A stretch of DNA of 64,000 nt from Candidatus Eiseniibacteriota bacterium (GCA_963823555.1 CAWGMA010000001.1:1472001-1536000), one strand, 5' to 3'. Shown: positions 29,237 to 59,542, numbered from the stretch's first letter. The notes: generated by a model not told the origin, from the sequence alone. Numbers and translations: made by a program.

Positions 29237-29279
29237 CGGCGTCCGAACGGCAGTCGAGCATACGGCGCATCCTCGGTCA

Positions 29280-29308
29280 TTGACACCTCCGGCGCGCTTA
29301 CGTAACCT
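29280..29308 (+). promoter_or_regulatory. Sigma70 promoter
   Basis: TTGACA-N17-TAACCT. Confidence 0.6.
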
Positions 29309-29388
29309 GCGGCGCGCCGGGCGGGTCCTTCGTCGGCCGCACAGCGGTCACCCAGCCCGGATGGACTCGTGCTGAGGAGGGCTGACCG

Positions 29389-30777
29389 ATGCTGTCCAGC
29401 CGTTCCGCGTCGCTCATCGGTGGCGCGCCTGCATCTTCGCGGAGCCACGGCCGCGGGTACCTGGGATGGGCGGTGATCCTGGCCCTGGCGCTCGCCGCGG
29501 GCGCTGCCAGCGCGGACGAGGACGGCACGGGTTCCGAACGGGAGCTCAAGCCCATCGGCCAGGTGCGCGTGCGCCCCGAGTTCCGGGACAACGCCAACTT
29601 CGACAGCGACCTTTCCGATCGTCAGAAGTTCTTCGGGCAGCGCACCCGGCTCGGACTCGATGCCAAGCTGAACCCGAAGCTGGGAGGACGTATCCTGGTC
29701 CAGGACACTCGTTACTGGGGTGTCGATGAAGGTCCGAACACGGCCTCGACCGGGACCGAGCGCCAGGCCACCGATCTCTTCGAGGGCTACATCGATGTGC
29801 GCTGGATCTGGGATCTCCCCCTCGATTTCCGCCTCGGACGACAAACGCTCAGCTTCGGGCGTGAGCGACTGATCGGGGAGCTCGACTGGTCGAACTCGGC
29901 CCGCACGTTCGATTCCTACAAGCTCCGGTTCACCATGGGCGCCTTCGTCCTCGACGTGTTCTCGGCCAAGCTGGTCGACACCAACACCCCCCGCCCGGAT
30001 ACGACCCAGTTCTATTCAGATCAGGACCGCAACTTCTCCGCGCTCTACATCACCCGAGAAGGGGAACGGGTCGAGCGCGCGGACGTCTACTGGCTACGGG
30101 ACATCGACAAGACCCGCCCGACGACACCCGGTGAGATCAAGCGCCATACGATCGGGGGCATGGCTCGTGTCCGCCTTCCAGCCCACTTCGCGGTCGAGGG
30201 CGAATATGCCTATCAGACGGGCACTGCCGGCAGCGCGTTCGATATCGCGGCCCAGATGCTCACGGCCGAGCTGCACTATTCGCGGCGGGATCTCCGCGAA
30301 CTCAAGATCGTCGGTGGCTTCGACTGGGCCACGGGAGACAGCGATCCCACCGATGACAAGCTCAAGACGTTCAATCAACTCTTCCCCACCGGACACAAGT
30401 TCCTGGGACTGATCGACTACGTGGGACGCCAGAACATCCGCGACTATCGCGCCCAGCTGGAGGGCCAGCTCGTCGGCGCGATCGATGGCCAGATCCAGTA
30501 CCACTGGTTTCAGCTCGATCAACCCGAAGACGCCTGGTACAACGCCGCCGGCGGCATCAATCAGGCGGGGGTGCGGGGGTTCGCCCCCAATCGGGCAAGG
30601 ACCGCGCGCAACCTCGGCAGCGAAATCGATGTGGTCTTCCGTTTCGGTGGCATCATCGACCAGCTGGGACTGGACGCCGGCTACTCGCACTTCTTTCCCG
30701 GCGACGTGGTGGGCTCGGATGGCGGCCCTGAAGATGGCTCCGACTGGGCCTACTTGCAGTTCAGTATCGACATCTAG
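29389..30777 (+). CDS. Alginate-export (AlgE-like) family porin
   Basis: QRTRL, LGRQ.L.FGRERLIG..DWSN..RTFD, EYAYQTG, ATGD, FNQLFPTGHKFLG, WAYLQ C-terminus. Confidence 0.85.
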   Translation: MLSSRSASLIGGAPASSRSHGRGYLGWAVILALALAAGAASADEDGTGSERELKPIGQVRVRPEFRDNANFDSDLSDRQKFFGQRTRLGLDAKLNPKLGGRILVQDTRYWGVDEGPNTASTGTERQATDLFEGYIDVRWIWDLPLDFRLGRQTLSFGRERLIGELDWSNSARTFDSYKLRFTMGAFVLDVFSAKLVDTNTPRPDTTQFYSDQDRNFSALYITREGERVERADVYWLRDIDKTRPTTPGEIKRHTIGGMARVRLPAHFAVEGEYAYQTGTAGSAFDIAAQMLTAELHYSRRDLRELKIVGGFDWATGDSDPTDDKLKTFNQLFPTGHKFLGLIDYVGRQNIRDYRAQLEGQLVGAIDGQIQYHWFQLDQPEDAWYNAAGGINQAGVRGFAPNRARTARNLGSEIDVVFRFGGIIDQLGLDAGYSHFFPGDVVGSDGGPEDGSDWAYLQFSIDI

Positions 30778-30792
30778 ACGGTCGCACAGCAC

Positions 30793-33645
30793 TCACGGTG
30801 CTTGGCCTGCGGTTGATGCGGGACTCACCATCAGGTTGTCGAAGTGCACATGACCCTGGAGCGCGATGAGCCCGATGCGACCGGAACCCGGCTCGTCGAC
30901 GGGCACCGTGGCGCTCAGCACCTTGCGGTCGTCGATCCAGGCGCTGATGAGCTCGCCGCGTGCGGTGATCCGTAAGGCGTGAGTGGCGAGCCCGGGGCGC
31001 ACGTAGGGGAAGTAAGCCGTCTCGATCGGCACGATCTGATCGCCCGCGATGCGGGCGATCACCGCCTCATGGTGCTGAGTCCCCGTCAGAAGCAGGGCCA
31101 CGCCGTTTCCCCGGCTGTCCCCCCGGATCAGAAGCCCGCCAGCGAACGGTGTGCTCCCGTAGCCCTCGATCTTCACTGCGACGTCGAGATCGGTGAACTC
31201 GCTGTCCCCCAGAAGCGTTTGCGCGCGCCGCGTGGCGTCCGGCGAGCATCCAAAGCCGTACTCGCCCTCATGAATGGTCCACGTTCCGGAGAGGACCACG
31301 AAGTCCTCCGTGTCTGCTGGGTCGGCGAAGCTGAAGTTGATCGAACCCCTGTCAGCTGCCCCCGTGACGGGCTGAGAAGGCGGTCCCTCGTTCCCGTTCA
31401 CGTCGGCTGCGGCCACCGCATAGCTCCAGGTCTCACCGGGGTCCACGGCGAGATCGCGATAGTGCGTTTGCTCGAACACTTGAGCCACGGCCTGGATCGC
31501 CGCCGTGTTCTGGAAGCTGGGATCCGGACCGCGATAGATGTGGTAGCTCGCAACATGCTGATTGTCGGTAGCGGGTTCCCAGGAGACTCCGAGCCCGACG
31601 GTCACCGGCTTGACCTCGACGCCGGTCACGATCTGCGGCGGACGCTGATCGAAGTAGACGCTCGAGGTCTTGAGTCCAAGGTCGAGCCCCTGGGCGATCC
31701 AGTCCGGCATGGAACCGCGCACGAAGAGAAAGGCCCGGATACCGTGACGAACGATGGCATCTGTTCGTAGCCGCCCGTTCTGCGTGGTTCCGAGGTGAGT
31801 GACCGAGAACCCTTCGATCGTGTCCGCGCTCAGCATCTCGACCGCATAGTCCCCGGCGTAGCCGAGGGCGGGAAAATCGACCCAGATCGCGGTCGAATCC
31901 TGATCCGCGAGGGAGAGGTTCGCCGTGACCAGCAGTGCCGCGTCGTCGCTCATGCGATACACCACGGACCAGAAATCGAGGTTGGATGAAGCGGAGACCG
32001 CGGTGATTCCAGTCGTTCGCACCTCCACCTGCGGGCCGGGTGGAACGAGGCGCATCACCTGCCAGAGGGGGAGCGCATGGCGCGCTGCGTAGGCCGAGCG
32101 ACCCTCGTTGAACCCCAGGGCCACGAGCGGGACGGAGCCGGTCGCCGCGGCGATGGCCATGGCCCGAGCGGTCTGCATCTGCACGGTCGTGGCCAGGGGG
32201 CACGGCGTCGCGTAGCTGGAGCCCCCGAGGTAGGCGTTGGCCAGCGTCGAGCGGGCGGCGCGCCAGTCAGCTCGCTCCTCGCCGAAGCTGACCCCATCCG
32301 CGAGAAGACCGAAGGTCAGGTCCGGTACTTCGAGCCCGGAGTGCGTGATCAGGATGCCGCTCGGCCCCAACCCCCGGCGGACCCCTTGCATCCAGGCGAA
32401 GCTCTCGCGCCCCGGGAAATCCGTGGGTCGCGCCGCGAGCGCTGCGTAGTGAGCGGACGCCTGCTCGATGAACAGGCCGTCCAGGCCGCTATCCCGCGCC
32501 CAGAGCCCCACGGCTTCTCCATCTCCTCCCGGCAGCACCGTGGCCAGGCAGCGCATGCCGGCGGCATGCACCTCGTCGATCGTGCGCCGGAACTCAGGCT
32601 CGTCGAGCGGGACGTTGCCGATCCGCCCGCCCTGAGCGCGCCAGCCGCCCCCGAGGACGAGGCCCGTCGCCCCGGCTCGCGCCATGGCCGTGATCGCGCT
32701 CGAGGACGGAAAGACCATGCCGTCGCCCTGTTCCTCGATCCAGTGGGCAAGGCGATGACCGGTGAGACGCGAGCGCAGCGGATGGACTCCGAGAAGAAAC
32801 CCCCATTTCATCTCGTAGGTGTAGGGCGCCACGAGCTCGAAGGGTCCCTCCTGTTCGGGAAGGATCCAGGTCGCGAAGTTCTTGCCGTCTCGTACGGCCG
32901 ACACCGCCTGAACCTCCGAACCCTTGAGAGAGTGCGGGCTTTCGGCGATGACCTGGAGCTGATTCGAGAGGCTGCCGGCGGTACCGAGGGCAAGCCCGAC
33001 GTTGGGGCAGAACGGTGTGGTGAAAACGGGCTGCGGCTCGAGCATGCCCGAGCCGCGATCGCGATTGCGCTGCCAGTGCCAGAAAGAAAGGGTGTAGGTG
33101 CCGGTGTCGACCTGCATCCCCAGAGATGCCTTGGTCACGGTGATCGGCTTGGATTTCTCGGGCAGGTTGAGGGCCAGGTCGAGGAAGACAGCACCCGCGC
33201 TGTGGATCGTATAGGTCGTGCGCAGCGCGAGCGGGGTTTCCTTTCCCGCCTCGGTGGCGAGCCGGGTGTCGCAAGCGACGACAACCCGCTCCGGTGTCTG
33301 CTCCTCGATCCGGATGCTGCCGGCGCTGAAGGGGCCCAGAGGACCATCCGGGGTGTAGACCAGGATCCCCGGCACCGAGTTGCGGCGAATGCCGGCCGCG
33401 ACCAGTTCGTGCCACTCGATCCCATCGAAGAGACGAATCGAGGTCAGGTCTCCCCCGGCGGCCCGCGACCAGCTGAGAGCGAAGTGGGAGCCGGTCACGG
33501 CCACGCTGTCGGCGGACGTGACCACCACGAGCGCCGCAGGTTCGAGTTCGGAGGCCAATCCATCGGCCAGCGGCAGCATCGTCCCGGAAGCCAGCGCGCC
33601 GGCCAGGGCAAGCACTACGGGAAGTGGAAGGGTGGCGTGTTTCAC
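30793..33645 (-). CDS. Large secreted multidomain protein: beta-sandwich, putative glycoside-hydrolase-like TIM barrel, FN3, LamG/DUF1080-like domain
   Basis: Signal peptide; EFRRTIDEVHAAGM and LDGLFIE (GH-like barrel); SWEPATDN..Y.IYR..Y.V.A.D..GNE (FN3); GRIGL....HFDNL. Confidence 0.6.
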   Translation of the reverse strand: MKHATLPLPVVLALAGALASGTMLPLADGLASELEPAALVVVTSADSVAVTGSHFALSWSRAAGGDLTSIRLFDGIEWHELVAAGIRRNSVPGILVYTPDGPLGPFSAGSIRIEEQTPERVVVACDTRLATEAGKETPLALRTTYTIHSAGAVFLDLALNLPEKSKPITVTKASLGMQVDTGTYTLSFWHWQRNRDRGSGMLEPQPVFTTPFCPNVGLALGTAGSLSNQLQVIAESPHSLKGSEVQAVSAVRDGKNFATWILPEQEGPFELVAPYTYEMKWGFLLGVHPLRSRLTGHRLAHWIEEQGDGMVFPSSSAITAMARAGATGLVLGGGWRAQGGRIGNVPLDEPEFRRTIDEVHAAGMRCLATVLPGGDGEAVGLWARDSGLDGLFIEQASAHYAALAARPTDFPGRESFAWMQGVRRGLGPSGILITHSGLEVPDLTFGLLADGVSFGEERADWRAARSTLANAYLGGSSYATPCPLATTVQMQTARAMAIAAATGSVPLVALGFNEGRSAYAARHALPLWQVMRLVPPGPQVEVRTTGITAVSASSNLDFWSVVYRMSDDAALLVTANLSLADQDSTAIWVDFPALGYAGDYAVEMLSADTIEGFSVTHLGTTQNGRLRTDAIVRHGIRAFLFVRGSMPDWIAQGLDLGLKTSSVYFDQRPPQIVTGVEVKPVTVGLGVSWEPATDNQHVASYHIYRGPDPSFQNTAAIQAVAQVFEQTHYRDLAVDPGETWSYAVAAADVNGNEGPPSQPVTGAADRGSINFSFADPADTEDFVVLSGTWTIHEGEYGFGCSPDATRRAQTLLGDSEFTDLDVAVKIEGYGSTPFAGGLLIRGDSRGNGVALLLTGTQHHEAVIARIAGDQIVPIETAYFPYVRPGLATHALRITARGELISAWIDDRKVLSATVPVDEPGSGRIGLIALQGHVHFDNLMVSPASTAGQAP

Positions 33646-33791: not shown

Positions 33792-34676
33792 TCAACGATC
33801 TAGCCTGCCCGGTTCCGCGTCGAGGTCGATGAGGACCCGGTCGCGCCGCCGCGCCGCCTCGGCGGTGACGATGGGGGGCAGCTCACTCAACTTGACCACC
33901 TGCCCCGGGAAGCGATCCCGGAAGACGTCCTCCAGCGCGTTCGCCATCTCCTCCCCCGAGACCACCCGGCCCGCTGCGGTGCTGACGTCGATCGTCTCGT
34001 TCGCCAGCCGTTGCCGGAGAGCGTCTCGATCCCCGCTCAGGCGCAGGAAGCGCACGAGTTCCGCTTGCTCCGGACCGAGGAGCAGCGATCCATGCTGCAG
34101 GAAGGCGCGGGTGAGTCGCCGCTGGGCGCTGCCGCAGATCTTCCGTCCGGCATGGACGAGTTCGTGGCCGTAAGCGACGGCGAAACAGGCGGCGAGGAGT
34201 CGCTCCGGTCCCGAGGAGCCCGGCGTCGCGGTCCCGGAGCGCCGCGGCGCGAAGGCCGTCTCGACGCCCAGGCGCGAGAGCGCCGCCATGATCAGCTCGG
34301 AGACGCGGCGATAGGTGTCATGGAGATTCGCCCCCCACCTCCCATCCGGGACCCCGCCGACCAGCGAATAGGTGAGCTCGTTGGCATGATAGACCGCCTT
34401 ACCGCCCGTCGAGCGGCGCACCACGGGCACGACGGCGCGGCGCAGGGCTGCCAGATCGAGCTCGTCATGGGGCGACTGCAAGCGCCCGATCGAGACCGCG
34501 GAGGGGGCCCAGCCGAAGAGCCGCACCCACGTGCCAGCCACGGCGCCGGATTGCCGCAGCTGGAGCAACGCGTCGTCGAGGGCCATGTTCCAGGCCGGAT
34601 CGCGGGGCCCATCCTGAACGAGGTGAATGTCGTGATCGGGCGCCGGTGGGACGCCCGCGGCGTCGAGTGGACTCAT
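33792..34676 (-). CDS. Lipoate-protein ligase A family / LipM-like octanoyltransferase
   Basis: WNMALDDAL, SIGRLQ, VVRRSTGGKAVYH, ACF, KICGSAQRR, LQHGS; single catalytic domain. Confidence 0.88.
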   Translation of the reverse strand: MSPLDAAGVPPAPDHDIHLVQDGPRDPAWNMALDDALLQLRQSGAVAGTWVRLFGWAPSAVSIGRLQSPHDELDLAALRRAVVPVVRRSTGGKAVYHANELTYSLVGGVPDGRWGANLHDTYRRVSELIMAALSRLGVETAFAPRRSGTATPGSSGPERLLAACFAVAYGHELVHAGRKICGSAQRRLTRAFLQHGSLLLGPEQAELVRFLRLSGDRDALRQRLANETIDVSTAAGRVVSGEEMANALEDVFRDRFPGQVVKLSELPPIVTAEAARRRDRVLIDLDAEPGRLDR

Positions 34677-34700
34677 GACCGGCAAGGCTAGCAGATGGGA

Positions 34701-35471
34701 CTATTGCGACCCGGAGGTCCCGCGCCGGCCCCGCATCCGCATCTCGAGCAAGCTGGCCACGATGATCGCGGCGATGAACAGGGCCATGCAGATCTGCGCG
34801 ATACCGGGGGCCGCCGCCGGCCAGTCGATGAACAGGAGGTCCATGCGACCGATGAGGAGCGAGTAGCGCGCCATCACGGTGAAGCCGTAGGACGCACCGA
34901 AGGAGATCATCAGGAACCAGATGCCGAGCCGCGCCACTCCCCCGAGGGCTCCCCGGTGTTCCCTTGAGAAGAAGAAATAGGCCAGCGAAGCGATGACACC
35001 GATCACGAGCACGAGGTTGTTGATGACGCTCGGTCCCGCGATGTTCTCCGCGTTCCAGAACGGGGTCCCGGGCCGTGGCACTGCGGAGATCATGGTGGCC
35101 TCGACCTGGGGCACGAAATCCCCCTGCGCCGCCCCGATCACGGCGAGCCCGGCAAAGGCGCCGACCATCACCGCCAGGGACCAGCGCGAGAGCCAGGCGT
35201 ACCGGGGCAGGAAACGGCTGAACATGAGCAGCCCGATGGCGAACGGAATGAGCAGGATGAGACGCGGCGGGGCCCCCTCGGCGCCGACCAGCGGCCGCCA
35301 CAGGTTGGGCAGGAAGACATTGTTCCACTCGAGCCCCACGTAGTAGCCGGCGGCCACGCCGATGAACAGGTGCTCGGCGAACTTGTAGATAGGGTTGTCC
35401 TTGAAGAGAAAGCTCAGGATGGCCAGTGTGAACAGGCCGTTCATCGTGAGCAGGAAGGCTTCAGGCAGCAT
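34701..35471 (-). CDS. Polytopic membrane protein, uncharacterised (GlmL-associated cluster)
   Basis: About 6-7 TM helices; TLAILSFLFKDNPIYKFAEHLFIGVAAGY; MISFGASYGFTVMARYSLLIGR. Confidence 0.8.
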   Translation of the reverse strand: MLPEAFLLTMNGLFTLAILSFLFKDNPIYKFAEHLFIGVAAGYYVGLEWNNVFLPNLWRPLVGAEGAPPRLILLIPFAIGLLMFSRFLPRYAWLSRWSLAVMVGAFAGLAVIGAAQGDFVPQVEATMISAVPRPGTPFWNAENIAGPSVINNLVLVIGVIASLAYFFFSREHRGALGGVARLGIWFLMISFGASYGFTVMARYSLLIGRMDLLFIDWPAAAPGIAQICMALFIAAIIVASLLEMRMRGRRGTSGSQ

Positions 35472-35477
35472 GGCGAA

Positions 35478-36320
35478 TCACCTCACCTTCCTCCCGGCGG
35501 CCACGAACAGCAGGTTGCCTAGGACAATGAAGAAGATGATGACCACGTGGGCCAGCGATTGCCCATCCATGCCGCGAGTGGCGGTGCCCATGACGCCGAT
35601 CAATTCCTCGAACTCGGCCGCTCCGGCGAGACCGCCGAGCAGGCCGTCGAGCTGGCCGGCATTGACGTAGGCGTAGTACTCGGGGGCGCTCACCGCGGTG
35701 CATCCCGAGACGATCGGGATCATCTCTTCACCGGCATTCTGGAAGCGCTGTCCCACCTGCTGCACCCATTCCTTGGTCCCGGGGTAGCCCGCCGAGATAC
35801 TCACCAGCAGATAGACGCTCGAGAAGTTCTGGACGTCCGCCATGATGGGCAGCTGGGATACGGGGCGTCCGTCGTAGTCGGTGGGAAAGGCCTCACGCAC
35901 CGCGGTCCCGACCCGCACCATCACCGCCTCCCGGCCCTCCTTGAAGCCCAGGTTCACGTAGTCGACGCCGTATTCCTTTGCATAGCGCGGGGCCACATCG
36001 CCAAAGGCTCGAGCCAGGAGCGGCGGCCCAGCCGGCCACAGGCAGAATCCAACCACCTTCACGTTGCGCCGGAAGCAGAGGTCGAGGACCGCCATCGTCA
36101 TCGGCTGCAACTCCGGCATCGACCCCGGATCGTAGTCCGCGGCGAGGAAGATGGTCCCGCCTTCCGGCACCCGCTCGACGGCCTGGAAGAAGGATCGCGC
36201 CTCGCGCGACACGCGGATCGGCAGACCCAGGGGGCGGACGTATGGCACGATGATCACGAGCAAGACCACGAGGAAGATGAACCGGCGGTCGAGATGCATG
36301 AGGCGGTGGGCCAGGCTCAT
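35478..36320 (-). CDS. Membrane-anchored alpha/beta protein, uncharacterised (GlmL-associated cluster)
   Basis: N- and C-terminal TM helices around a soluble domain (YGVDYVNLGF, GLLGGLAGAAEFE). Confidence 0.8.
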   Translation of the reverse strand: MSLAHRLMHLDRRFIFLVVLLVIIVPYVRPLGLPIRVSREARSFFQAVERVPEGGTIFLAADYDPGSMPELQPMTMAVLDLCFRRNVKVVGFCLWPAGPPLLARAFGDVAPRYAKEYGVDYVNLGFKEGREAVMVRVGTAVREAFPTDYDGRPVSQLPIMADVQNFSSVYLLVSISAGYPGTKEWVQQVGQRFQNAGEEMIPIVSGCTAVSAPEYYAYVNAGQLDGLLGGLAGAAEFEELIGVMGTATRGMDGQSLAHVVIIFFIVLGNLLFVAAGRKVR

Positions 36321-36324
36321 CAAG

Positions 36325-36972
36325 TCACTCGCCCCCCAGGTAGTTGCGCTCGAGACCGAGGATGACCTTGAGCCCGGTGGCGATGGCGCCGAGCGCGGCG
36401 CCGATCAAGATCGCTCGCTTGGCCGCGTTGTTCGGGATCCCCATGATCCAGTCCGAGATGTTGGGCAGCTGATCCCAGATGGCGGCGCCAATCGGCACCC
36501 GGCCCAGCATGACCAGGACCGCAGCGATGGCGAGCAGACCGGCCTCGAACGAGCGGACACGAAACGCCCGGAACGCGGCCGAGGCGATGAAGAAGGCGAG
36601 GAGGGCGAACATCGTGCCTTGCATCGGCACATAGACGTGGAGATAGAAATCGTTGAACAGCGTTCCTTCGGCAATGCCGAACAACGGAGCGCGGCCCACG
36701 CTGCCCCCGACCCCGAGCACCACCATGACGGCGAAACCGATCAGGAGCGGGATGTGATAGAACCAGTCGTGCTCGCGGCGCGTGATACGCAGGTAGCTCA
36801 AGCGGGCGATGTTGGCCACACCGAGAACGGCGGCGAAGGCGAGGATGATGATGGCCCAGGACTCGAGCTCGGTACGTCCCGCCGTGAAGTGGCGCTGCGG
36901 GACAAAGAGTCCGATGACCATGAACAGGCCGACGATGAGCGTGATCGCCAGCGGCACCTCACGCCGGAGCAT
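36325..36972 (-). CDS. Polytopic membrane protein, uncharacterised (GlmL-associated cluster)
   Basis: About 6 TM helices; TMFALLAFFIASAAFRAFR; PNNAAKRAILIG; LGLERNYLG. Confidence 0.8.
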   Translation of the reverse strand: MLRREVPLAITLIVGLFMVIGLFVPQRHFTAGRTELESWAIIILAFAAVLGVANIARLSYLRITRREHDWFYHIPLLIGFAVMVVLGVGGSVGRAPLFGIAEGTLFNDFYLHVYVPMQGTMFALLAFFIASAAFRAFRVRSFEAGLLAIAAVLVMLGRVPIGAAIWDQLPNISDWIMGIPNNAAKRAILIGAALGAIATGLKVILGLERNYLGGE

Positions 36973-37005
36973 GGGTGTCCTCCTCCGCCGGCGCGCCGGC
37001 TCTGG

Positions 37006-38262
37006 CTACCGCAGCACGAACCATTGGCGGAACGCCTCCCACCCAGCACTCGCGGTCAAGACTCCCAGGAGGATCAAGGCGATCACGATGACCTTCATCC
37101 AATCGGTGCCCTTGAGCACGCCGATCAGCTTGGGCTCACGAGACAGATAGGCCGAAGCAGCGTAGAACTCCTCGCCGATCAGGGTGTAATCGCAGGCGAC
37201 GACGAAGAAAGGTAGCTGGTGGATGTTGGCCGTGCCCGCGATCTGCACGGCGCCGGTGGCGAAGCCGGTCTCGGCGAGGATCAGCGACTCGGCGAAGAAC
37301 GAGCCCAGGAACAGGTTCGCCGCCGGCTTCTCGCGCAGCATGATGCCGTCGACTCCGGCCGTGAAGGCGAACTGCTCTTCGGAGAGGTAGCGAATATTGT
37401 TCTTGTTGTAGGCGTCGGGGCGACCGGCATCCAGGTAGCCCTGCTTCACCGTCTCCTCGGCGAGGGGCACCACGAAGGCGCGGCAGACGGGCACGATGAG
37501 GGGTGTCTCGTAGCGCGCCACAGTCTTCGCCACGTTGCCGAGGATGATCATCGAGTAGATGGTCTGGATGTTGTTCGCGTCGTCGATTCCTGGAACGTAG
37601 AGCACCGCGCGGCCCATCTCGGTGGCGCGCCCGATCGCCTCCTCGATGGCGGTGAGGCCGGCGATCTTGCGGACGAAGGGTGCCTGCCCGCGGCGGGCAT
37701 GATCCTCGGTGAGCCGCGTGAAGACGAGCACGAGCGCGAAGAACAGGAGAATCAGCACCAGCAGATTCGAGCGATCGGTGTTGAAGTAACTCTGACGCGC
37801 CACACCGGATACGGCCGTGCTTGCGGTTTCCCCGAGTTCACCGCGGGCGGCGACCCGGTAGTAGTAGGCAACGCCGTTGCGCAACGGAGAACCGGGCCGG
37901 TCGGTATCGACGAAGACCGAGGTGCCGGCGTTCACGGTGTCGATGGCGGCAAAGGGCCCGTCCGGGCTCTCGCTTCGATAGATCACATAGCCCTGCGCCG
38001 CATCCCCCGGCACGCGCTTCCAGGTGATGTGCAGGGCTTGCCCCGCGTCGTTGCGCACGTCGCGAACGGACACGCTATCGGGAGCCGCCGGGATCCTCGG
38101 CGCCTCACGTTCCCCCGCGGCGGGGGTGAGGGTCGTGGGCGCACCGGCCGCGGCGGAGGAAGGGTCGGGACCGGGCTCGGCCTGGGCGATCGGCAAGAGG
38201 ATCACGAGCGCCAGGAGCGCCATGACCGCCCACACCGTGCTGCCGCCCCGCTTGCTCCTCAT
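37006..38262 (-). CDS. Fibronectin-III plus DUF6754-like membrane protein
   Basis: Signal peptide; FN3 (ITW..GYVIYRS..YYYRVAA); TM; RKIAGLTAIEEAIGRATEMG; ESLILAETG; LIGEEFYAASAYLS; C-terminal TM. Confidence 0.8.
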   Translation of the reverse strand: MRSKRGGSTVWAVMALLALVILLPIAQAEPGPDPSSAAAGAPTTLTPAAGEREAPRIPAAPDSVSVRDVRNDAGQALHITWKRVPGDAAQGYVIYRSESPDGPFAAIDTVNAGTSVFVDTDRPGSPLRNGVAYYYRVAARGELGETASTAVSGVARQSYFNTDRSNLLVLILLFFALVLVFTRLTEDHARRGQAPFVRKIAGLTAIEEAIGRATEMGRAVLYVPGIDDANNIQTIYSMIILGNVAKTVARYETPLIVPVCRAFVVPLAEETVKQGYLDAGRPDAYNKNNIRYLSEEQFAFTAGVDGIMLREKPAANLFLGSFFAESLILAETGFATGAVQIAGTANIHQLPFFVVACDYTLIGEEFYAASAYLSREPKLIGVLKGTDWMKVIVIALILLGVLTASAGWEAFRQWFVLR

Positions 38263-38311
38263 GTCATCTCCGGCCCTGCTTGCTCAACCGGCAGCTCCGC
38301 TGCCGCTTCAG

Positions 38312-39444
38312 CTAGCCCTCGATCATCTCGACATTGGCGCGCGGCAAGGTAACGCGCTCGCCCGGAGCGAATTCCACCTCGAGGACTCGGACCCGGGCTT
38401 CGGTCTCGAGGGCCTGGAGCTCGCTCGGGAGATCGCTCACGGTGCCCAGGTGTCCAAAGTAGGGTTCGCGGATGACGCGAATCGGCGTCCCCACCGTGAG
38501 TCCAATGTTGTGGTCATGACCCGCATCGTCAATCGCCGCCTTGTCATCAGGGACGATCAGCTCCGGACGCAGCACGCCGGCGCGAATCTGCGTGGCGCCG
38601 TTCATGGAGGCCACCCGCCCCGCGCTGGCGCCGAGGAGATCGAAGGTCTTCTGCGCCATGGGCATCTGTCCGAAACCCTCGGTCACCATCAGAGTGATGC
38701 CGATGTCCTCGTGCCCGGTGATGGCCACACCGAGGTCGTAGCCGAGAAAGTCACGCAGGTCCTTGTCGGAAAACCCTCCCACGACGATACCCGCGACACC
38801 CGCTTTCACCGCCAGCGAGAGCGTCTCCTTGGTCACGTGGGAACCCCCGATCAGGAGCGCTCCCCGGGCGCGATCGCCAAGAGCGGACAGCGCCGCTCCA
38901 TCGAGTTCATGGTCACGGGCCTTGACGGCGACAGTAAGGGTCCCATGAGTCTCGCCGCCAATGCCGAAGATGCCTTGAACGAAGGCCCCGCGGGTCTCGA
39001 TCACGACTCCCTGCCGCTCGATGATCTCCACCACTTCCCCATCGACGTAGGCCTGCACCTCGAGGGGGATGGGCGGCTCGCGCAGGATGACATTGCCGGT
39101 CACCTTGGACACGGTCTCCACGGTGCCGGTCACGGGCGCTTGCACGCGGGAAGTAAAGAGACCGAAGAAGGTCTTGCTGAGCGCCGAGGTCCTTGCCCTT
39201 CTCGATCGTGCTCGCCTTCCCGCTTCACCAGGGAGCGTTCGAGATCCTCGGGCAGGAGGCCAAGCAGATTGGCGACGTTGACCGTCTGCACGTTTCCCGG
39301 GAGCTCGGTCTTCGCCACCACGTCGGTCGCTTTGACCCGGCTGCCCTTCTTGACCAGGACCTCGCCGAGGATCGGCAGCCGCCGCTCGCGTCGCATCGTG
39401 GCGGTCTTGGTGACGGTGAGACCTGGGGTGTAGGCGTGAGCCAT
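38312..39444 (-). CDS. Protein with repeated barrel-sandwich hybrid (biotinyl/lipoyl-like) motifs, an alpha/beta domain and a KOW-like C-terminus; apparent frameshifts near 39.2 kb
   Basis: Joining ORFs 39130-39444 and 38312-39523 by removing two single-base insertions gives about 376 aa; GEVLVKKG, APVTGTV, AYVDGEV, QGIFGIGGE, IRVIREPYFG. Confidence 0.75.
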
Positions 39445-39456
39445 CTCGCTTCCTTC

Positions 39457-41335
39457 CTAGCCCGCCATGACCGGTGCGTTGGGACGAGCGGCGACCCCGG
39501 CGGGCGCCATGCCGGGTAGGCATCCAGCGCCTCGATCCACTGGGTCAAGCAGACGGATGCGCTCGTCGCGATTCTCCGGCAGTCCGAATGGGCGCCGCCC
39601 GCGCCCGTCGAGCAGGATGCCCACTTCGCCGCCGACGAGACGAGCACGGATTGCTCGGCCCTTGCCCTCGCCGAGGTCCTGGTGCCGGCCGGGGGTCAGC
39701 ACGGCGTCGATCTCCTCGCCCGGGCCGGCCGCAACGCGCCGGATCTCCCCGTACCGGATCTCGAACTCCTCCGTCCGTGCCAGCCGTCCAGGTCAGGCTC
39801 GCCTGGAGCGCCGTCTCTGCCGCGCCGTCCCTGGCCCCACGGGGCGACGGCGGTGCCGAGGCGGATCAGGCAGTCCTTGCTCGAAGACCTCGGTGGCCGC
39901 CTTCTCGTGCACCGTCGGCGAGCACGCCGAGCTGCGGCATCATGAAGATCGAGTCGACCGCCAGCTCGGTGACGCCCTCGGGCAGGAAGGCGTCGATCAT
40001 CATCAGCGCGGCCTGGATCGCGCCGCGGCGCGTGCGAGAGCACGCCGCCCGACCCGACCAGCAGGTCGAGCGCCATCAGGTCGACCAGCGTGTCGCCGCT
40101 CGAGCTGTCTGCTCGAAGGTGTCGGAGATCGTGCGCTCCTGCTGCACGCCCTTGAGGCCGACCGCCAGCGGCTTGTGCTGCTCGAAGGCCAGCCGCAGCG
40201 CCTCGCGGGCGATCGCCTGCTCGATCATCAGCTCCTCGAGCGGTCTGCGGGATGGTGGTCGGGCGGATCATCTTGTTCTTGATCCGGTTGCGCAGCTCGG
40301 CCTCGTCCAGACCGAACGGCACCCAGCGCATGACGTTGGCGACCCCGGCCTCGGCCAGCACGTTGGAGACGCGAGTAGCTCATGCCGAGGTTGGCGCACA
40401 CCGTGCGGTTGAAGACGCCCTGGAAGACGGAGAAGACGTCGGTCGTGGCGCCGCCGATGTCGACGCCGACCACGTCGATCCTCTCCTCGCTTGGCGATCG
40501 TCTGGATGATCGAGCCGACCGCCGCCGGGCGTCGGCATGATCGGGACCGGCGGTCCAGGCCATCAGCTTCTTGTAGCCCGGCGCCTGCGCCATGACGTGC
40601 TCCATGAACAGGTCGTGGATCTTGTCGCGCGCCGGGCCCAGGTTCTCGCGCTCGAGCATCGGCCGGAGGTTGTCGGTGATCACGAGGGCGGTCTTGTCCG
40701 CCAGGCGCTCCTCGATCAGCGGCGCGGCGTCCTTGTTGCCGGCGTAGATGACCGGCAGCTCGTAGCCGGCGCCGAGGCGCGGCCTTGGGATCGGCCGCGG
40801 CGATGATCTCGGCCAGCTCGACCACGTGCTGGGTCGTGCCGCCGTCGATGCCGCCGGAGAGCAGGATCATGTCGGGCCGCAGCTGGCGGATGCGCTCGAT
40901 CTTCTCGTGCGGCAGGCGGCCGTCGTTGGAGGCGATCACGTCCATGACGATGGCGCCGGCGCCCAGGGCGGCGCGCTCGGCGCTCTCGCCGGTCATCTGA
41001 CTTGACCACGCCGGCCACCATCATCTGCAGGCCGCCGCCGGCCGCTGAGGTCGAGAGGTAGAGATCGACCCCGCGGTCGCCGCTCTGCGGGGTGATGATC
41101 GTGCTCGCCGTCGAGGAGCTCGCGGCCGGCAGAGCTCCTCGACCTCGCGGATGGCGTTGAGCACGCCGCGGGTCACGTCCTCGAACGGCGCCTCGACCGT
41201 GGTCGGCGCCTCGCCGCGGACGATCAGGCGGTAGACGTCGCCCTGCTTCTCGATGAGGATCGCCTTGGTCGTGGTCGAGCCGCAGTCGGTGGCGAGGATG
41301 GAGCGGATCTGATTGGGTTGGATGGTCTGACTCAT
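39457..41335 (-). CDS. glmL: GlmL/MutL (glutamate mutase reactivase)-like ASKHA ATPase; many frameshifts (probable sequence errors, or a pseudogene)
   Basis: Fragments in several frames: ATDCGSTTTKA (phosphate 1), LRPDMILLSGGIDGG, VDIGGATTDVFS (phosphate 2), RTV.ANLGMSYS, GSGGVLSHAP, GGEVGILLDGRGR. Confidence 0.75.
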
Positions 41336-41794: not shown

Positions 41795-42205
41795 CTACGC
41801 CTCCCCACGCCGCCTGGCCGCTTCGCGTGCTTCCCTCTCAGCCTTCTTGGCGGCGCGCGCCGCGGCCTTCGCTTCGCGTTCGCGATCTCGCTCCTCCTCG
41901 TCGAGGGTCTCGATGAGCACAAGGAGCCGCTCCAGAGAATCGCGATTCTCCATGAGCTGGGCGAAGCGCTCGTACTGAGCGATGTGGAAGAAGGTCCGCA
42001 CGAAGGGCTCGAAGAAGATGAGCGCCTGACTGCCGATGAAGCTCAGCGGCTTCACCGACTCGAGAAAGAACACCGCTGGCGTGGCCAGCCCCATCCGCAC
42101 CACCCGACCGGCCACGGCAGAGAGCAGGGCCTCGTCCTCCGCTGGGAAGCTCCCTTCGGGGGCCGGCTTCGATCCCGCGTCGTCGCCTGGACTAGTCATG
42201 AGCAC
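41795..42205 (-). CDS. Conserved-looking hypothetical helical protein
   Basis: PAVFFLESVKPLSFIGSQALIFFEPF; overlaps the upstream gene; charged C-terminal coil. Confidence 0.65.
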   Translation of the reverse strand: MLMTSPGDDAGSKPAPEGSFPAEDEALLSAVAGRVVRMGLATPAVFFLESVKPLSFIGSQALIFFEPFVRTFFHIAQYERFAQLMENRDSLERLLVLIETLDEEERDREREAKAAARAAKKAEREAREAARRRGEA

Positions 42206-42668
42206 CTTCGCTCTTTCGTTTCGACCTGGGCAAGGGCGAAAGGCGGGCGGCCACCGCGGCGACCACCTGCTCTCGATTGCCGGCGAAGAGGAGCCTCACA
42301 CCACGATAGGACTCGAGCCAGGAGGTGTGTCGGTATGGGCTCAAAGTAACGCCTCGCGCATCGGCGACATAGGTACGGAGAGCGGACCACTCGCGCCGCC
42401 GCGCCCCGAGGACCGATGTGGCGGCCACACCCTGGTCATCGATGCGGAAATTGGTCGGCAAGAAGTACGTGGCCAGCGACAGGAACAGGATGGCCAGGGC
42501 CACGCCGCCAATGATGGGACTACCGCCGTAGATCCCCAGAGCGAAGGCTGCCGCCAGGAGCGCCAGGGCCACGGCACCCGCCTGCGCCGGCCGTTCCGCT
42601 GCAGGCCACGCCCGCCAGAGGAGGGTCGCCGGTCCCCTCTCCTCCTTTCCTATGTCTCCGGCTTCCAC
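42192..42668 (-). CDS. Small two-TM protein with PH-like C-terminal domain
   Basis: Two TM helices, then YFLPT.F.IDDQGV..RRREW; overlaps the gcvPB end. Confidence 0.65.
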   Translation of the reverse strand: MEAGDIGKEERGPATLLWRAWPAAERPAQAGAVALALLAAAFALGIYGGSPIIGGVALAILFLSLATYFLPTNFRIDDQGVAATSVLGARRREWSALRTYVADARGVTLSPYRHTSWLESYRGVRLLFAGNREQVVAAVAARLSPLPRSKRKSEGAHD

Positions 42669-44191
42669 CGCAGCTTGAGCTCACGGGCCGCCCGAGCCTC
42701 ATCGAGACGGCGAACGGGGGTCGCATGGGGAGCCTCGTGCAAGAGGTCCGGGTTTTCACGGGCTTCACGGGCGATGTCCTTGAGGGCCGCCGCAAAGCGA
42801 TCGAGGGAGTGCTTGGTCTCGGATTCAGTAGGTTCGATCATCATCGCCTCGTGCACGATGAGCGGGAAGTAGACCGTCGGCGCGTAGAAGCCATGGTCGA
42901 GAAGCCGTTTCGCCATGTCCGTCGTGCGCACCCCGTGCGCCTTCTGCCGGTCGCCGGAGAGCACGAACTCGTGCAGTGAAGGCCCGTCATAGGGCAACTC
43001 GAAGTCATCGAGCAGAAGCGCCTTCAAGTAGTTGGCGTTGAGCACGGCGTTCTCTGTCGCCTCGCGCAGACCATCGGGACCCAGCGCCAGGATGTAGGCC
43101 AGGGCGCGCACGTGCATCCCGAAGTTTCCGTAGAAGGAGTGGACCTTCCCCACCGAGCGCGGCCGGTCCCATTCGAGGACCACGCGACCGTCCTTCCTCT
43201 CGATCGTGGGACGGGGCAGGTACGGTTCCAGCGCAGCCTTGATCCCCACCGGACCGGAGCCCGGACCGCCGCCCCCATGGGGCGTCGAGAAGGTCTTGTG
43301 CAGGTTCAGATGGCAGATGTCGAATCCCATGTCGCCCGGTCGGGTGACACCGGCCAGTGCATTCAAGTTGGCGCCATCGAGATAGAGGAGTGCCCCGGCT
43401 TCGTGCACCCGGGCCGCGATCTGGACGATGTCCTCCTCGAAGAGGCCGAGCGTGTTGGGGTTGGTGACCATGAAGACGGCCGTCCGGTCGTCGAGAGCGC
43501 GGAGCAGCGCTTCGAGATCGACCAGTCCGCGCGCATCGGACTTGATCTCCACCGGTTCGAAGCCACACATCGCGGCGCTGGCCGGGTTGGTGCCGTGGGC
43601 TGAATCAGGGTAGATCACGCGCTTCCGGTCGTGCTCGCCGCGGTCATGGAAATACGCCCGTGCCATCAACAGGCCGGTGAACTCCCCCTGCGCCCCGGCC
43701 GCGGGCTGGAGAGTGATGTGATGCATGCCCGTGATTTCCGCCAGCAAGTCTCGCAGTTGGGCCATCAGGCCGAGGGCCCCCTGGGTGGCCGCCGCGGGCG
43801 CCAGGGGATGCAGGGCAGCGAATCCGGGGAGCGCGGCCAGGGCCTCGTTCACCTTCGGGTTGTACTTCATGGTGCACGAGCCAAGAGGGAACACGTCGCG
43901 GTCGATGTGATGGTTGAGGACCGAGATCCGCGTGAAGTGGCGGACCACCTGGGGCTCGGTGACCTCGGGCAGACGCGGCTCGCTCCGCCGCAAATGTGCT
44001 GATGGCAGCAGATCCTCCAGCGGAGTATCGGGTACATCGAGCGGTTCCAGGCGGTATCCGATGTGGCCAGGAACGGAGAGCTCGAAGATGAGCGGCTCGG
44101 GACCTCCGGTCATGGCACGAGGGTCAGGACCGGACGGTGACGTTCCGGTCTTCTTCCCGGTCTCCTGATGGGTCCGCTTCGGCGCGCTCAT
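42650..44191 (-). CDS. gcvPB: Glycine dehydrogenase (decarboxylating) subunit 2
   Basis: PLGSCTMKYNPK, AHGTNPAS, HLNLHKTFSTPHGGGGPG (PLP lysine), IEPTESE. Confidence 0.97.
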   Translation of the reverse strand: MSAPKRTHQETGKKTGTSPSGPDPRAMTGGPEPLIFELSVPGHIGYRLEPLDVPDTPLEDLLPSAHLRRSEPRLPEVTEPQVVRHFTRISVLNHHIDRDVFPLGSCTMKYNPKVNEALAALPGFAALHPLAPAAATQGALGLMAQLRDLLAEITGMHHITLQPAAGAQGEFTGLLMARAYFHDRGEHDRKRVIYPDSAHGTNPASAAMCGFEPVEIKSDARGLVDLEALLRALDDRTAVFMVTNPNTLGLFEEDIVQIAARVHEAGALLYLDGANLNALAGVTRPGDMGFDICHLNLHKTFSTPHGGGGPGSGPVGIKAALEPYLPRPTIERKDGRVVLEWDRPRSVGKVHSFYGNFGMHVRALAYILALGPDGLREATENAVLNANYLKALLLDDFELPYDGPSLHEFVLSGDRQKAHGVRTTDMAKRLLDHGFYAPTVYFPLIVHEAMMIEPTESETKHSLDRFAAALKDIAREARENPDLLHEAPHATPVRRLDEARAARELKLRWKPET

Positions 44192-45561
44192 CTCCGTGCC
44201 TCCGCGAGTGCCGGTCCCGTCGCTTTCACGCCCGCCACAACGGAACCCAGTCGCTCGATCTCCTCGCGAGTCCGGCGCTCGGTGACGGCGACGAGAAGAC
44301 CCTCCTCGAACTCAGGATCGAGTTGCCGGAGCGGAACCCCGGCGAGAATGCCCGCTGCGAGGCCACGCTCGATCACTGCAGCTGTCGGTCCGGGAACCCT
44401 GACGGCAAACTCACGGAAGAACGCTCCGTCGTGAAGCCGCGGGGCGCCGGCGCGTTCGAGCACGCGAGCAGCGAAGTGCGCCTTCTTCAGACAGTGCTCG
44501 GCGGTCTCGCGGATGCCTTTCTTTCCGAGCAGACTCAGACTGATGGTGGCCATCAAGGCGATGAGGCCGGTGTTGGTGCAGATATTGGAAGTCGCGCGCT
44601 CGCGCCGGATGTGTTGCTCGCGCGTCTGCAGAGTCAAGACGTAGCCCCGCCGCCCATCACGATCCACGGTTTCCGCCGCGAGGCGCCCGGGCATACGTCT
44701 CACGTGCTCAGCCTTGGCGGCGAAGAAGCCGAGGGCCGGCCCACCGAAGCTGGCGAACGTGCCCAGCGACTGCCCCTCGCCGACGGCCACATCCGCGTCG
44801 TAGTCTCCAGGGGGCGCGATGAGCCCCAGCGAGATGGGGTCGACGCTGGCAACGAGCAAGGCTCCGGCCCGATGGATCACCTCGGAGAGATGTCCGACAT
44901 CCTCCAGCAATCCGAAGACGTTCGGGTGCTGGATGACCACCGCAGCGACATCGTCACCGATCTTCTCGGCCAGCAAGGCTGCGGGCGTCGTGCCGCCGGG
45001 TGCAGGAACGGTCTCGAAGGCGAGACCTGAGGCCGAGGCATACGTGCGCGCCACCTCGGCATGGAAGGGATGAACCCCGCCGAGAAGCAGGATTCGCGAA
45101 CGCCGTGTCGCGCCCGCGGCCAGCAGGATGGCTTCGGCGAGGGCGGAGCCGCCGTCGTACATGGAGGCATTCGCCACATCCATGCCGGTGAGCTCGCAGA
45201 TCAAGGTCTGAAACTCGAAGATCACGGCGAGGGTGCCCTGGCTCACCTCCGGCTGGTACGGCGTGTAGGCCGTCATGAACTCCGAGCGCGTTGCCAGCAT
45301 CCGAACCGCAGCCGGAACATAGTGGTCATAGATCCCGGCACCGAGGAAAGAGGCCATGCGCTCGTTGTCGGCGTTCTCGGCGGCCATGGCACCGAGGACG
45401 CGCGACAGCCGGTCCTCGCCATGCGCCGGCGGCAGGTCGAGCAGTTCCTGCAGCAAGAGGCGTCGTGGGATGGACCCGAAGAGCTCATCAATGCTCGAAA
45501 CACCCATGGCGGCGAGCATGGCTCGCCGCTCCGCATCACCCTTCTGAGAGTATCGGCTCAC
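44188..45561 (-). CDS. gcvPA: Glycine dehydrogenase (decarboxylating) subunit 1
   Basis: FLGAG, AYTPYQPEVSQG, NASMYDG, LQTREQHIRRERATSNICTN; GTG 45561 with GGAGG RBS. Confidence 0.97.
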   Translation of the reverse strand: MSRYSQKGDAERRAMLAAMGVSSIDELFGSIPRRLLLQELLDLPPAHGEDRLSRVLGAMAAENADNERMASFLGAGIYDHYVPAAVRMLATRSEFMTAYTPYQPEVSQGTLAVIFEFQTLICELTGMDVANASMYDGGSALAEAILLAAGATRRSRILLLGGVHPFHAEVARTYASASGLAFETVPAPGGTTPAALLAEKIGDDVAAVVIQHPNVFGLLEDVGHLSEVIHRAGALLVASVDPISLGLIAPPGDYDADVAVGEGQSLGTFASFGGPALGFFAAKAEHVRRMPGRLAAETVDRDGRRGYVLTLQTREQHIRRERATSNICTNTGLIALMATISLSLLGKKGIRETAEHCLKKAHFAARVLERAGAPRLHDGAFFREFAVRVPGPTAAVIERGLAAGILAGVPLRQLDPEFEEGLLVAVTERRTREEIERLGSVVAGVKATGPALAEARR

Positions 45562-45702
45562 GCCACTTATCCCTCCGCGGAAACGGTCCCGCTCCCGCGC
45601 TTGCGAGCCGCTCCCCACCTCGGGCATGGGAGAGCGCGACATGGCGAACGACATGTTTGGCCGGCATCCGGAGCCGACCCCATCCTGCGTTCGAGGCGCC
45701 GG

Positions 45703-46095
45703 CTACGCCCCGATATGGTCGGCGTACCCCTTGGCATCGAGGAGTGTTTCGAGCTCACTCTCATCCTGGACGCGGATCTTGACCACCCATCCCTCTTCAT
45801 ACGGAGACTCGTTGATGAGGCCGGGATTCTTGTCCAGGTGGATGTTGATCTCGACGACCTCGCCGGAGACGGGAGCGTAGAGGTCGGCGACGGTCTTCAC
45901 CGCCTCAACGAGACCGAACGGTTTCCCCTGGACCGTATTCTCTCCGATGTCAGGCAGCTCCACGTAGACGACGTCACCGAGCTCACCCTGGGCGTAATCG
46001 GTGATCCCGACGGTGGCGACACCATCTTCGATCTCGATCCACTCGTGGTCCTGGGTGTAGCGCAGATCCTCAGGGATGGTTGTTTCTTCCGCCAT
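45703..46095 (-). CDS. gcvH: Glycine cleavage system H protein
   Basis: HEW, GITDYAQ..LGD, VEAVKT (lipoyl Lys), APVSG, N.SPY..GW. Confidence 0.97.
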   Translation of the reverse strand: MAEETTIPEDLRYTQDHEWIEIEDGVATVGITDYAQGELGDVVYVELPDIGENTVQGKPFGLVEAVKTVADLYAPVSGEVVEINIHLDKNPGLINESPYEEGWVVKIRVQDESELETLLDAKGYADHIGA

Positions 46096-46175
46096 CAGTC
46101 CTCCCCCTCCGGCTCGTGCCGACGTGGGCCAGCGTCTCCGGGTCCGCATGTGAGCTCCGGATGCGCGTGGCAACC

Positions 46176-47285
46176 TCACTTCGCGCCGGGGCGTCCTCGC
46201 TTGTAGAACGGCTTCGCTACAACATGAGCCGAGAACACCTGGTCCCGAATCGTCACCTCGATCTCATCCCCCAGATTCGCCGAGTTGCTCGCAATGAGGG
46301 CAAGCGCATACGCCCCATCTAGAGTCGGCGCGAACATGCCGCTTGTGACCTGACCGATCGCCTGACCTCTCCACGCCACGCGACTACCCTGGCGCGCGAT
46401 GCGCGCCCCGGCCATCTTAATCCCAACCAGCTTCCTGGGGATGCCTGTTTCCCGCTGGCGCAGCAGAGCATCGCGACCCAGGAACGGTTTGTCGAGCTTG
46501 ACCGCAAAACCGATGCCGGCCTCGAGCGGCCCGATCTCGGGCGTCAACTCATGGCCATAGAGACAGAGCCCCGCCTCGAAGCGCAGCGTATCGCGCGCGC
46601 CCAGGCCAGCGGGTTGGACTCCCAGATCGACTCCCGCCGCCAGGAGCCCGGCCCACAACCTGGCCGCTTGCTCCGCATCGACCATGATCTCGAAACCGTC
46701 TTCCCCGGTGTACCCGAGCCGGGCGATGAGCGCATCGATCCCGAAGACCCGTCCGTGCTGGAAGCGGTAGTAGCCAAGATCATGGACGAGTGCTCCCCCG
46801 CGACCGAGGAGCTCGGGCGCGCGCGGGCCCTGCACGGCGACAAGGGCGCTGCGCGCCGAGATGTCGTCCATCTCGACCCCGGCCGGCCGGTGGCTCTCGA
46901 GCCAGGCGAAGTCCTTCTCGCGGTTCGAAGCGTTGACCACCATGAGGTAGTCACCGGCAGCAACGCGGTAGACGATCAGGTCATCGACCGTGCCGCCGTC
47001 CTCATAGCAAAGCGCCGAGTAGATGGCCTGGCCATCGGCGATGCCGGCGATCCGGTTGGTCACCAGGTGATCGAGGAAGGACTCGGCGCCGCGGCCGTGA
47101 ACCCGGAAGCGCCCCATGTGCGAGACGTCGAAGAGACCGACCGCCTGGCGGACGGCGAGGTGCTCGGGAATGATGCCCGAGTAAGACAGGGGCATGTCCC
47201 ACCCGGAGAAGTCGACCATCTTGGCGCGTAGCTCCCGGTGGGTGGCGTTGAGTGGAGTCTTGTGCGCAGCGAGAGCGGAGTCCAT
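46176..47285 (-). CDS. gcvT: Glycine cleavage system aminomethyltransferase T
   Basis: FSGWDMP, FDVSHMG, GYTGEDGFE, GLGARDTLRFEAG. Confidence 0.97.
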   Translation of the reverse strand: MDSALAAHKTPLNATHRELRAKMVDFSGWDMPLSYSGIIPEHLAVRQAVGLFDVSHMGRFRVHGRGAESFLDHLVTNRIAGIADGQAIYSALCYEDGGTVDDLIVYRVAAGDYLMVVNASNREKDFAWLESHRPAGVEMDDISARSALVAVQGPRAPELLGRGGALVHDLGYYRFQHGRVFGIDALIARLGYTGEDGFEIMVDAEQAARLWAGLLAAGVDLGVQPAGLGARDTLRFEAGLCLYGHELTPEIGPLEAGIGFAVKLDKPFLGRDALLRQRETGIPRKLVGIKMAGARIARQGSRVAWRGQAIGQVTSGMFAPTLDGAYALALIASNSANLGDEIEVTIRDQVFSAHVVAKPFYKRGRPGAK

Positions 47286-47364
47286 GGGTGTCGGCCGCTT
47301 CCTTGCCCCGCGGCGGGAGTCTGCTGCCGCCCGGTGCTTCCGGGCGGCGGTGAACAAGCGCCCG

Positions 47365-51066: not shown

Positions 51067-51081
51067 CCAAGTCATGAGGAC

Positions 51082-51103
51082 CGGGACGGGGCCCTCCGTC
51101 CCG
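51082..51103 (+). other. Intergenic stem-loop between A and B
   Basis: CGGGACGG/CCGTCCCG inverted repeat with no U-tract. Confidence 0.4.
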
Positions 51104-51118
51104 ACTCGAGGAGGGGTC

Positions 51119-54349: not shown

Positions 54350-54359
54350 GAGGTCGGTG

Positions 54360-55130: not shown

Positions 55131-55214
55131 GAGGGCGCACGGCCGCTCGGCCGCCAGAGCCCCTGCTTCCCATCGCCCCCTGGCCGCTCATGGGGACACA
55201 GTGAGGAGAGGATC

Positions 55215-59533: not shown

Positions 59534-59542
59534 GAACGATCC

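Follow-up and report, generated by a model that had tools for sequence, protein, structure and literature searches.

A conserved eight-gene module joining a GlmL/MutL-family actin-fold ATPase to membrane cassettes in Candidatus Eiseniibacteriota, and its possible role as an importer

GlmL is the accessory, or reactivase, protein of the B12-dependent glutamate mutase, while DdrA (the diol dehydratase reactivase) and EutA are actin-fold (ASKHA) ATPases that work by binding and release. Among transporters, Group II ECF systems and shared ABC ATPases such as MsmX offer examples in which one energising unit serves several unlinked membrane modules. Here, we analysed a stretch of 64,000 nucleotides from a Candidatus Eiseniibacteriota bacterium (GCA_963823555.1, CAWGMA010000001.1:1472001-1536000; hereafter the window) that carries a GlmL/MutL-family ATPase gene beside a gene for a partner protein built on barrel-sandwich hybrid motifs (HYB) and a cassette encoding four membrane proteins (DUF6754 protein, M3, AB and M4). 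The module is conserved as a gene set, jointly present and absent in genomes, and the system is real and undescribed. We tentatively read it, with less than even confidence, as an importer in which the ATPase and HYB would energise one to several four-subunit cassettes that take up an organic nutrient.

A preliminary description of the window had reported six co-directional genes on the minus strand between 34701 and 41335. These genes are indeed present, but the unit numbers eight, as two small genes, u2 and u1 (41795-42668), travel along with them. The minus-strand order is gcvT, gcvH, gcvPA, gcvPB, u2, u1, ATPase, HYB, DUF6754, M3, AB, M4 and lipoate ligase. The u2 gene (42192..42668) is an open reading frame for a small accessory member with, according to hydropathy, an N-terminal membrane hairpin and a cytoplasmic domain; u1 (41795..42205), likewise an open reading frame, encodes a small helical protein that is the seventh conserved member, and both have uncertain start codons. 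In two module-free genomes of the class (G005 and G013), gcvPB directly adjoins the ligase gene and u2 is absent, which delimits the eight-gene unit, and u1 and u2 belong to it. At one locus (L043, G003:C1:3197500-3215500), the block u2-u1-DUF6754-M3-AB-M4 is inverted relative to ATPase-HYB, which suggests an association of u1 and u2 with the membrane cassette. According to Pfam, the ATPase gene (PF13941) is the sole nucleotide-binding gene of the module, with no ABC-type ATPase, whereas M3, AB, M4, HYB, u1 and u2 of the window matched no Pfam or NCBIfam family.

A scan of GTDB confirmed at least 573 relatives, and the locus counts given below refer to 80 of these. At the 80 loci, u1 was found 72 times, HYB 66, DUF6754 52, M3 and AB 51 each, M4 49 and u2 44, the u1 and u2 profiles being built from one class, so that distant copies may escape them. 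All six genes of the preliminary description stand together at 44 of the 59 loci with at least 6 kb of downstream sequence; DUF6754 is missing from 13 of the 59, and nine of the ten genomes checked carry it elsewhere. Within the class, DUF6754 and the ATPase family occur in the identical 38 of 41 genomes. The same holds in Nitrospirota, where DUF6754 was found in 23 of 151 genomes and a full ATPase adjoins it in the same 23 (one extra match is a contig-end fragment). Carriers include Eisenbacteria, Latescibacterota, Marinimicrobia, Nitrospirota, anammox Brocadiales, Zixibacteria and WOR-3, among others. Co-occurrence is kept across phyla, far beyond chance; kin are not independent, yet the joint presence and absence holds inside two phyla. 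Distance matrices of the four cassette proteins correlate mutually at 0.79-0.81 and with that of HYB at 0.66-0.69, values that are confounded by kinship. The position of u1 varies, either beside the ATPase or between HYB and DUF6754, and any genes that interrupt the module bear no relation to one another across loci.

The numbers of the two parts differ within genomes. The genome under study holds one ATPase, one HYB and four DUF6754-M3-AB-M4 cassettes, three of them orphan, one of its cassettes (on contig C4) being frameshifted as well. Further orphan cassettes picked from the hit tables were complete and in order in 13 cases out of 13, and up to five cassettes occur per genome. This gene layout is that of transporters with a shared energiser and, by analogy, the ATPase-HYB pair may be physically shared between cassettes. 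It also lends support to a transporter-like system such as the ATP-driven membrane complex put forward in the preliminary description, in which ATP hydrolysis, docking and transport are inferred. That idea withstood two of the conditions set for its refutation, a lack of co-occurrence in other genomes and a strict association of the ATPase with a mutase, the latter examined for GlmE.

The ATPase gene (39457..41335, its 3' end placed by inference) encodes a long member of the GlmL/MutL family and is recognised in the window as four PF13941 pieces (41335-39696). On an intact relative, PF13941 matches over its full length (421.7 bits, profile positions 1-450), whereas the NCBIfam scan, run on the broken fragments of the window only, gave 17-48 bits (the equivalog cut-off of NF040745 being 475 bits); the match to EutA is weak (E 0.003) and a PDB sequence search returned nothing useful. 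The phosphate-1, phosphate-2 and adenosine motifs noted earlier are borne out, their core residues being identical in all 69 relatives compared. By these motifs the protein belongs to the ASKHA superfamily, and ATP hydrolysis is predicted.

The gene cannot, however, be read as the open frame that had been assumed, since at least 16 small frameshifting insertions break it. In a frameshift-aware alignment to a relative of the same family, with 489 of 578 residues identical, all 16 breaks are insertions (15 of one base, one of two bases) and no in-frame stop occurs. HYB contains two more single-base insertions, near 39207 and 39182, and the ATPase gene of a genome of the same genus (G001) has three. 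Substitutions per codon position in the ATPase (0.11/0.07/0.34) resemble those in intact neighbouring genes, intact ATPases of 602-625 residues were found in 33 of 40 regions fetched from relatives, and the GC content at third codon positions (GC3) is 0.96-1.0 in three segments of the ATPase against 0.78-0.90 in all neighbours. Because stops are absent, the substitution pattern is purifying and the ATPase is intact in most relatives, the insertions in ATPase and HYB are probably an assembly artefact, a consensus error from mixed reads.

These observations bear on the most conservative explanation, namely that the ATPase would simply reactivate, in the usual GlmL manner, a B12 mutase whose gene lies elsewhere, the membrane genes being chance neighbours, or else that the locus is a decaying pseudogene. 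The Pfam MutL match, the frames broken here (16 insertions) and in G001 (3), and the other B12-binding proteins of the genome speak for it. The abnormal GC3 and the stop-free, insertion-only breaks under a purifying pattern do not fit decay, and the ATPase is present where DUF6754 is present. As already noted in the preliminary description, no B12-enzyme gene lies in the window: none of the 10 B12-binding matches of the genome falls there, and GlmE was not found in the genome. Nor did strict tracking of the ATPase with the mutase appear in wider sampling, as GlmE passed the cut-off in 0/41, 0/5 and 0/5 genomes, with two weak matches below the cut-off among the 41 and a control set that holds only a weak positive. 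The lysine/ornithine aminomutase family PF09043 was likewise absent from the 41 class genomes (0/41, with no positive control). Since the ATPase tracks with neither of the two families searched, it is likely no helper of these B12 enzymes. A reactivase with chance neighbours is largely refuted by this occurrence profile, and we regard the explanation as a whole as barely credible.

HYB (38312..39444, 376 residues in relatives) was first taken for a protein of repeated hybrid motifs. An internal hybrid-motif repeat is present (hhalign probability 80, E 1.5e-5, reached by none of 30 block shuffles), but the protein also comprises an alpha/beta domain in its centre and, at the C-terminus, a KOW-like domain, the latter being recognised from a weak NusG match (E 0.038) and from the name of an Atlas cluster. 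The central domain resembles, by eye only, a swivelling beta/beta/alpha domain. HYB homologues and fusions gave matches to RnfC_N, NQRA_N (E 3e-6) and Biotin_lipoyl. Among relatives, no cysteine is invariant, and neither is any lysine in the hairpin, where the top lysine column reaches 44 of 69 and the window has a threonine; no HYB was found on plasmids. We discounted a local match between DUF6754 and HYB (E 0.008) because it spans a mere 25 columns. Natural ATPase-HYB fusions occur in four relatives as second copies, with a KOW-less HYB and no cassette alongside (L050:3396-6146, L051:3154-5697, L052:6248-8803 and L053:9147-11783; 848-917 residues, with extra hybrid repeats), and may have a stand-alone function.

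The lipoyl-like hybrid motifs of HYB raise the question of a system for lipoyl enzymes that would take up or pass on lipoate or octanoate, or service glycine cleavage and pyruvate dehydrogenase. In the window the unit is flanked, as non-members, by gcvT, gcvH, gcvPA and gcvPB (42650..47357, minus strand, Pfam) and by the catalytic domain of a lipoate-protein ligase (lpl, 33792..34685, minus strand, PF21948, E 2e-32). Lipoyl-linked genes (gcv, lpl, lipA, pdh) lie within 10 kb at 44 of the 80 loci, a number inflated or reduced by kinship between loci, in three settings: gcv with lpl in Eisenbacteria, lpl in Latescibacterota, and pdh with lipA in some Nitrospirota. Yet the remaining 36 loci have no such neighbours, the gcv genes, gcvH included, and the ligase gene are retained in module-free genomes, LipA was found in 40 of the 41 genomes irrespective of module presence, and the HYB hairpin lacks an invariant lysine. 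Several cassettes per genome would also be left unexplained, and we consider a lipoyl-linked role decidedly improbable. At several Nitrospirota loci, pdhA-pdhB-pdhC-lipA stands upstream of u1, and on another contig of the genome studied here (G000:C2:358119-362602) three divergent GcvH-like genes are clustered.

The membrane cassette begins with the DUF6754 protein (37006..38262, PF20539, E 1e-111), previously noted as an FN3/DUF6754-like membrane protein, a view that holds. It has a signal-like N-terminus, a variable outer domain, a helix, a Rossmann-like domain and a second helix, and the FN3-like character of its N-terminal region is based on a weak Pfam match in a relative and a tblastn self-match. 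Next come the polytopic membrane protein M3 (36325..36972), then AB (35478..36323), with a predicted extracytoplasmic Rossmann-like domain between two membrane helices, and the polytopic M4 (34701..35471), which is fused to AB in two natural proteins; two polytopic proteins and a second membrane-anchored alpha/beta protein had been described from the start. The DUF6754 family comprises 2,454 clusters at 50% identity. In 150 representatives, the outer part ranges from fewer than 100 to more than 1000 residues and no DUF6754-M3 fusion was found; of the 67 long outer domains, 50 were scanned, 14 giving a BamB-like propeller, 3 FN3 and 33 nothing at E<=1e-4. One AB homologue (P0121) has a tandem-duplicated Rossmann domain, and another (P0124) carries a zinc-ribbon and a long acidic repeat at its N-terminus. 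The AB relatives in Atlas are unnamed only, and PDB sequence searches with DUF6754, AB, M3 and M4 returned nothing useful, the best match of M3 having an E of 7.6.

The DUF6754 core was modelled with a predicted local distance difference test score (pLDDT) of 95.5 and a natural AB-M4 fusion with a pLDDT of 85 and a predicted template modelling score of 0.82. The AB-M4 alignment drew on 60 of 64 rows for AB, cut before the last helix, and on 40 of 56 for M4. The DUF6754 and AB models share a common plan of membrane helix, six-stranded alpha/beta domain and membrane helix. Lysine and arginine are enriched on the domain side of the DUF6754 helices (4.1 and 3.2 against 1.7 and 0.7 opposite), which places the domain inside, whereas for AB the domain side scores 1.9 and 1.8 against 3.5 and 3.3 opposite, which places it outside. 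Because of this charge bias and of the extra helix of the AB-M4 fusion, the two Rossmann-like domains are predicted to lie on opposite faces of the membrane, that of DUF6754 in the cytoplasm and that of AB outside it. No internal repeat in M3 or M4 gave a profile signal above block shuffles.

A pair of Rossmann-like domains also recalls the RCK/KTN gates of nucleotide-gated ion channels or pumps, which the ATPase pair would then regulate or drive. Counting by title, RCK/KTN entries take up seven places among the 50 best rows of AB and eight among those of DUF6754, and the RnfC/NqrA-type hybrid motifs of HYB are known from ion-pumping complexes. The RCK/KTN entries nonetheless score no better, at Z 8-10, than sirtuins, dehydrogenases and glycosyltransferases, no pore family was found, and the AB domain is predicted outside. 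Neither variable outer domains nor up to five cassettes per genome would be expected of a channel, which appears to us quite improbable.

Returning to the importer, we propose that AB and the variable outer domain of DUF6754 would capture the substrate, that M3 and M4 would form the path across the membrane, and that the ATPase, by analogy to reactivase-type ASKHA proteins, would undergo a nucleotide-driven cycle of binding to and release from the cytoplasmic domain of DUF6754, while HYB would serve as its coupling arm. If so, the module could define a new class of primary active transporters, powered by an ATPase of actin/Hsp70 fold. ATPase-HYB would there dock on interchangeable four-subunit cassettes with Rossmann-like domains on opposite faces. 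The module extends over ten or more phyla, nitrite oxidisers and anammox bacteria among its carriers; this wider proposal is slightly more tentative than the importer itself.

Several results weigh against an importer. Foldseek, run with the DUF6754 and AB-M4 models, found nothing at E<=0.001 and no transporter fold, and a wide fold search returned only tied generic Rossmann domains (best Z 9.6 for AB and 10.4 for DUF6754, with 16 entries common to the two top-50 lists by our own count), AB not standing out as a solute-binding-protein fold. The models cover DUF6754 and AB-M4, and the AB-M4 list was filled by AB matches, so that M4 was barely probed. Neither between DUF6754 and AB nor between M3 and M4 did sequence homology give a profile signal above block shuffles, and an inverted-repeat design is unproven. 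The neighbours of orphan cassettes are heterogeneous (53 proteins chosen from 176 candidates), and scans of 20 DUF6754 loci and of five longer regions revealed no riboswitch. The records from Nitrospirota and anammox bacteria are a poor fit to a peptide importer because these organisms are largely autotrophs, and FN3 and propeller outer domains would also suit protein handling or sensing.

The last point leads to the alternative of an ATP-driven envelope machine for proteins or polymers, acting in insertion, release, quality control or export, whose FN3 and propeller domains would bind clients. FN3 and BamB-like propellers are typical protein-binding folds, the ASKHA group concerned consists of remodelling chaperones, conservation is very high across phyla of unlike diet, and, of 16 orphan cassettes inspected, four have peptidase genes beside them. 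Against these points, the module matched no insertase or secretion component, no conserved client gene was found near the cassettes, and the module is cleanly dispensable in 3 of 41 relatives. An envelope machine is, in our opinion, unlikely, though it deserves to be kept in mind.

Concerning the cargo of an importer, the preliminary description had suspected a link to amino-acid catabolism. Amino-acid or peptide genes indeed lie near 51 of the 80 loci, a count biased by kinship, but at 23 of the 80 amino-acid and lipoyl neighbours are both missing. Opp genes were seen in the vicinity of 27 loci out of the 80, yet they also come after lpl in the module-free G005 and G013. Amino acids or peptides are our best guess, to which we give about half of the weight carried by the importer itself. 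At four Latescibacterota loci (L115, L116, L122 and L128), some 4-6 kb with oligopeptide ABC transporter genes separate ATPase and HYB, and a Memo-like gene follows M4 at six Nitrospirota loci (e.g. L145:16504-17823).

Corrinoids were weighed as another cargo: in a B12 importer, the reactivase-like ATPase would strip the cofactor from the cytoplasmic DUF6754 domain. The family tie of the ATPase to B12-mutase operons favours such a cargo, as does the genome itself, which has a cobalamin riboswitch before a receptor-like gene (by eye) and in which no FecCD/BtuC permease was found. Full-length FecCD, however, was found in only 8 of the 41 class genomes. All eight carry the module; the three genomes without the module have no full-length FecCD. 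FecCD/BtuC is also present in 22 of the 23 module-positive Nitrospirota, which leaves no complementarity. The loci scanned have no cobalamin riboswitch, none of the 50 best fold rows was, going by its title, a B12-binding domain, and DUF6754 and AB gave no Pfam match to one. A B12 importer is thus very improbable. The riboswitch of this genome, which does encode B12-binding proteins, is found at G000:C1:2098000-2108323, ahead of a gene for 642 residues (outer-membrane-receptor-like by eye) and another for 388 residues.

Elsewhere in the window, four large secreted proteins are encoded on the plus strand at 47866-63634, three of them carrying beta-helix and FlgD-Ig tails. The region 28520-33645, immediately downstream of the ligase gene, contains two outer-membrane barrel genes, one alginate-export-like, as well as a gene for a 950-residue FN3-bearing protein that matches no family.

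In titles, beginnings of abstracts and passages around the terms DUF6754, GlmL/reactivase and ASKHA, we found no description of this system, nor is it mentioned in the passages of PMC5898192 reached by term search, though its genes may appear under locus tags in proteome tables. To our knowledge, no solute transporter is powered by an actin-fold ATPase; should the importer be true, a further means of energising transport would join ABC, P-type and rotary pumps. Irrespective of its function, the machine is large and conserved, its carriers belong to abundant phyla that are for the most part uncultured, and the family label of its ATPase, which points to glutamate mutase, misleads metabolic reconstructions. 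The single-copy versions in Nitrospirota and anammox genomes designate hosts where proteomics and structural work may be feasible.

Compared with described systems, the ATPase is of the same family, over all 450 positions and with ASKHA motifs, as GlmL/MutL and Or-4 of ornithine degradation (PF13941; NF040745, NF040744, TIGR01319). It differs from them in its length, about 605 residues against 448-459 profile positions, and in being tied to HYB and membrane cassettes, with GlmE not found in the genomes tested. DdrA and EutA share the ASKHA ATPase and, by eye, a swivelling-like domain with the centre of HYB, but no B12 lyase partner was identified here, and the proposed target would be a membrane complex. 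The hybrid motifs of HYB homologues match the N-terminal domains of RnfC and NqrA (PF13375, PF05896), whereas HYB has no flavin or Fe-S motif and M3, M4 and AB match no Rnf/Nqr family. From Group II ECF transporters and MsmX, which the module resembles by its gene counts (one ATPase-HYB per genome, several unlinked cassettes), it differs in that the ATPase is of actin fold rather than ABC, and no EcfT, S-component or solute-binding-protein family was detected, M3 having been compared by sequence and M4 by sequence and, barely, by fold. Finally, AB has a Rossmann-like topology in common with the RCK/KTN domains of Ktr/Trk/MthK (5but, Z 8.9, root-mean-square deviation (rmsd) 3.4, 132 aligned) and MT0777 (1kjn, Z 9.6, rmsd 3.5, 140 aligned), and DUF6754 reaches Z 9.7 with both 3fwz (rmsd 4.1, 128 aligned) and 1kjn (rmsd 3.3, 132 aligned). 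Identity to these proteins is 5-15%, their scores are tied with those of many unrelated Rossmann folds, and in contrast to them the domain is here clamped between two membrane helices.

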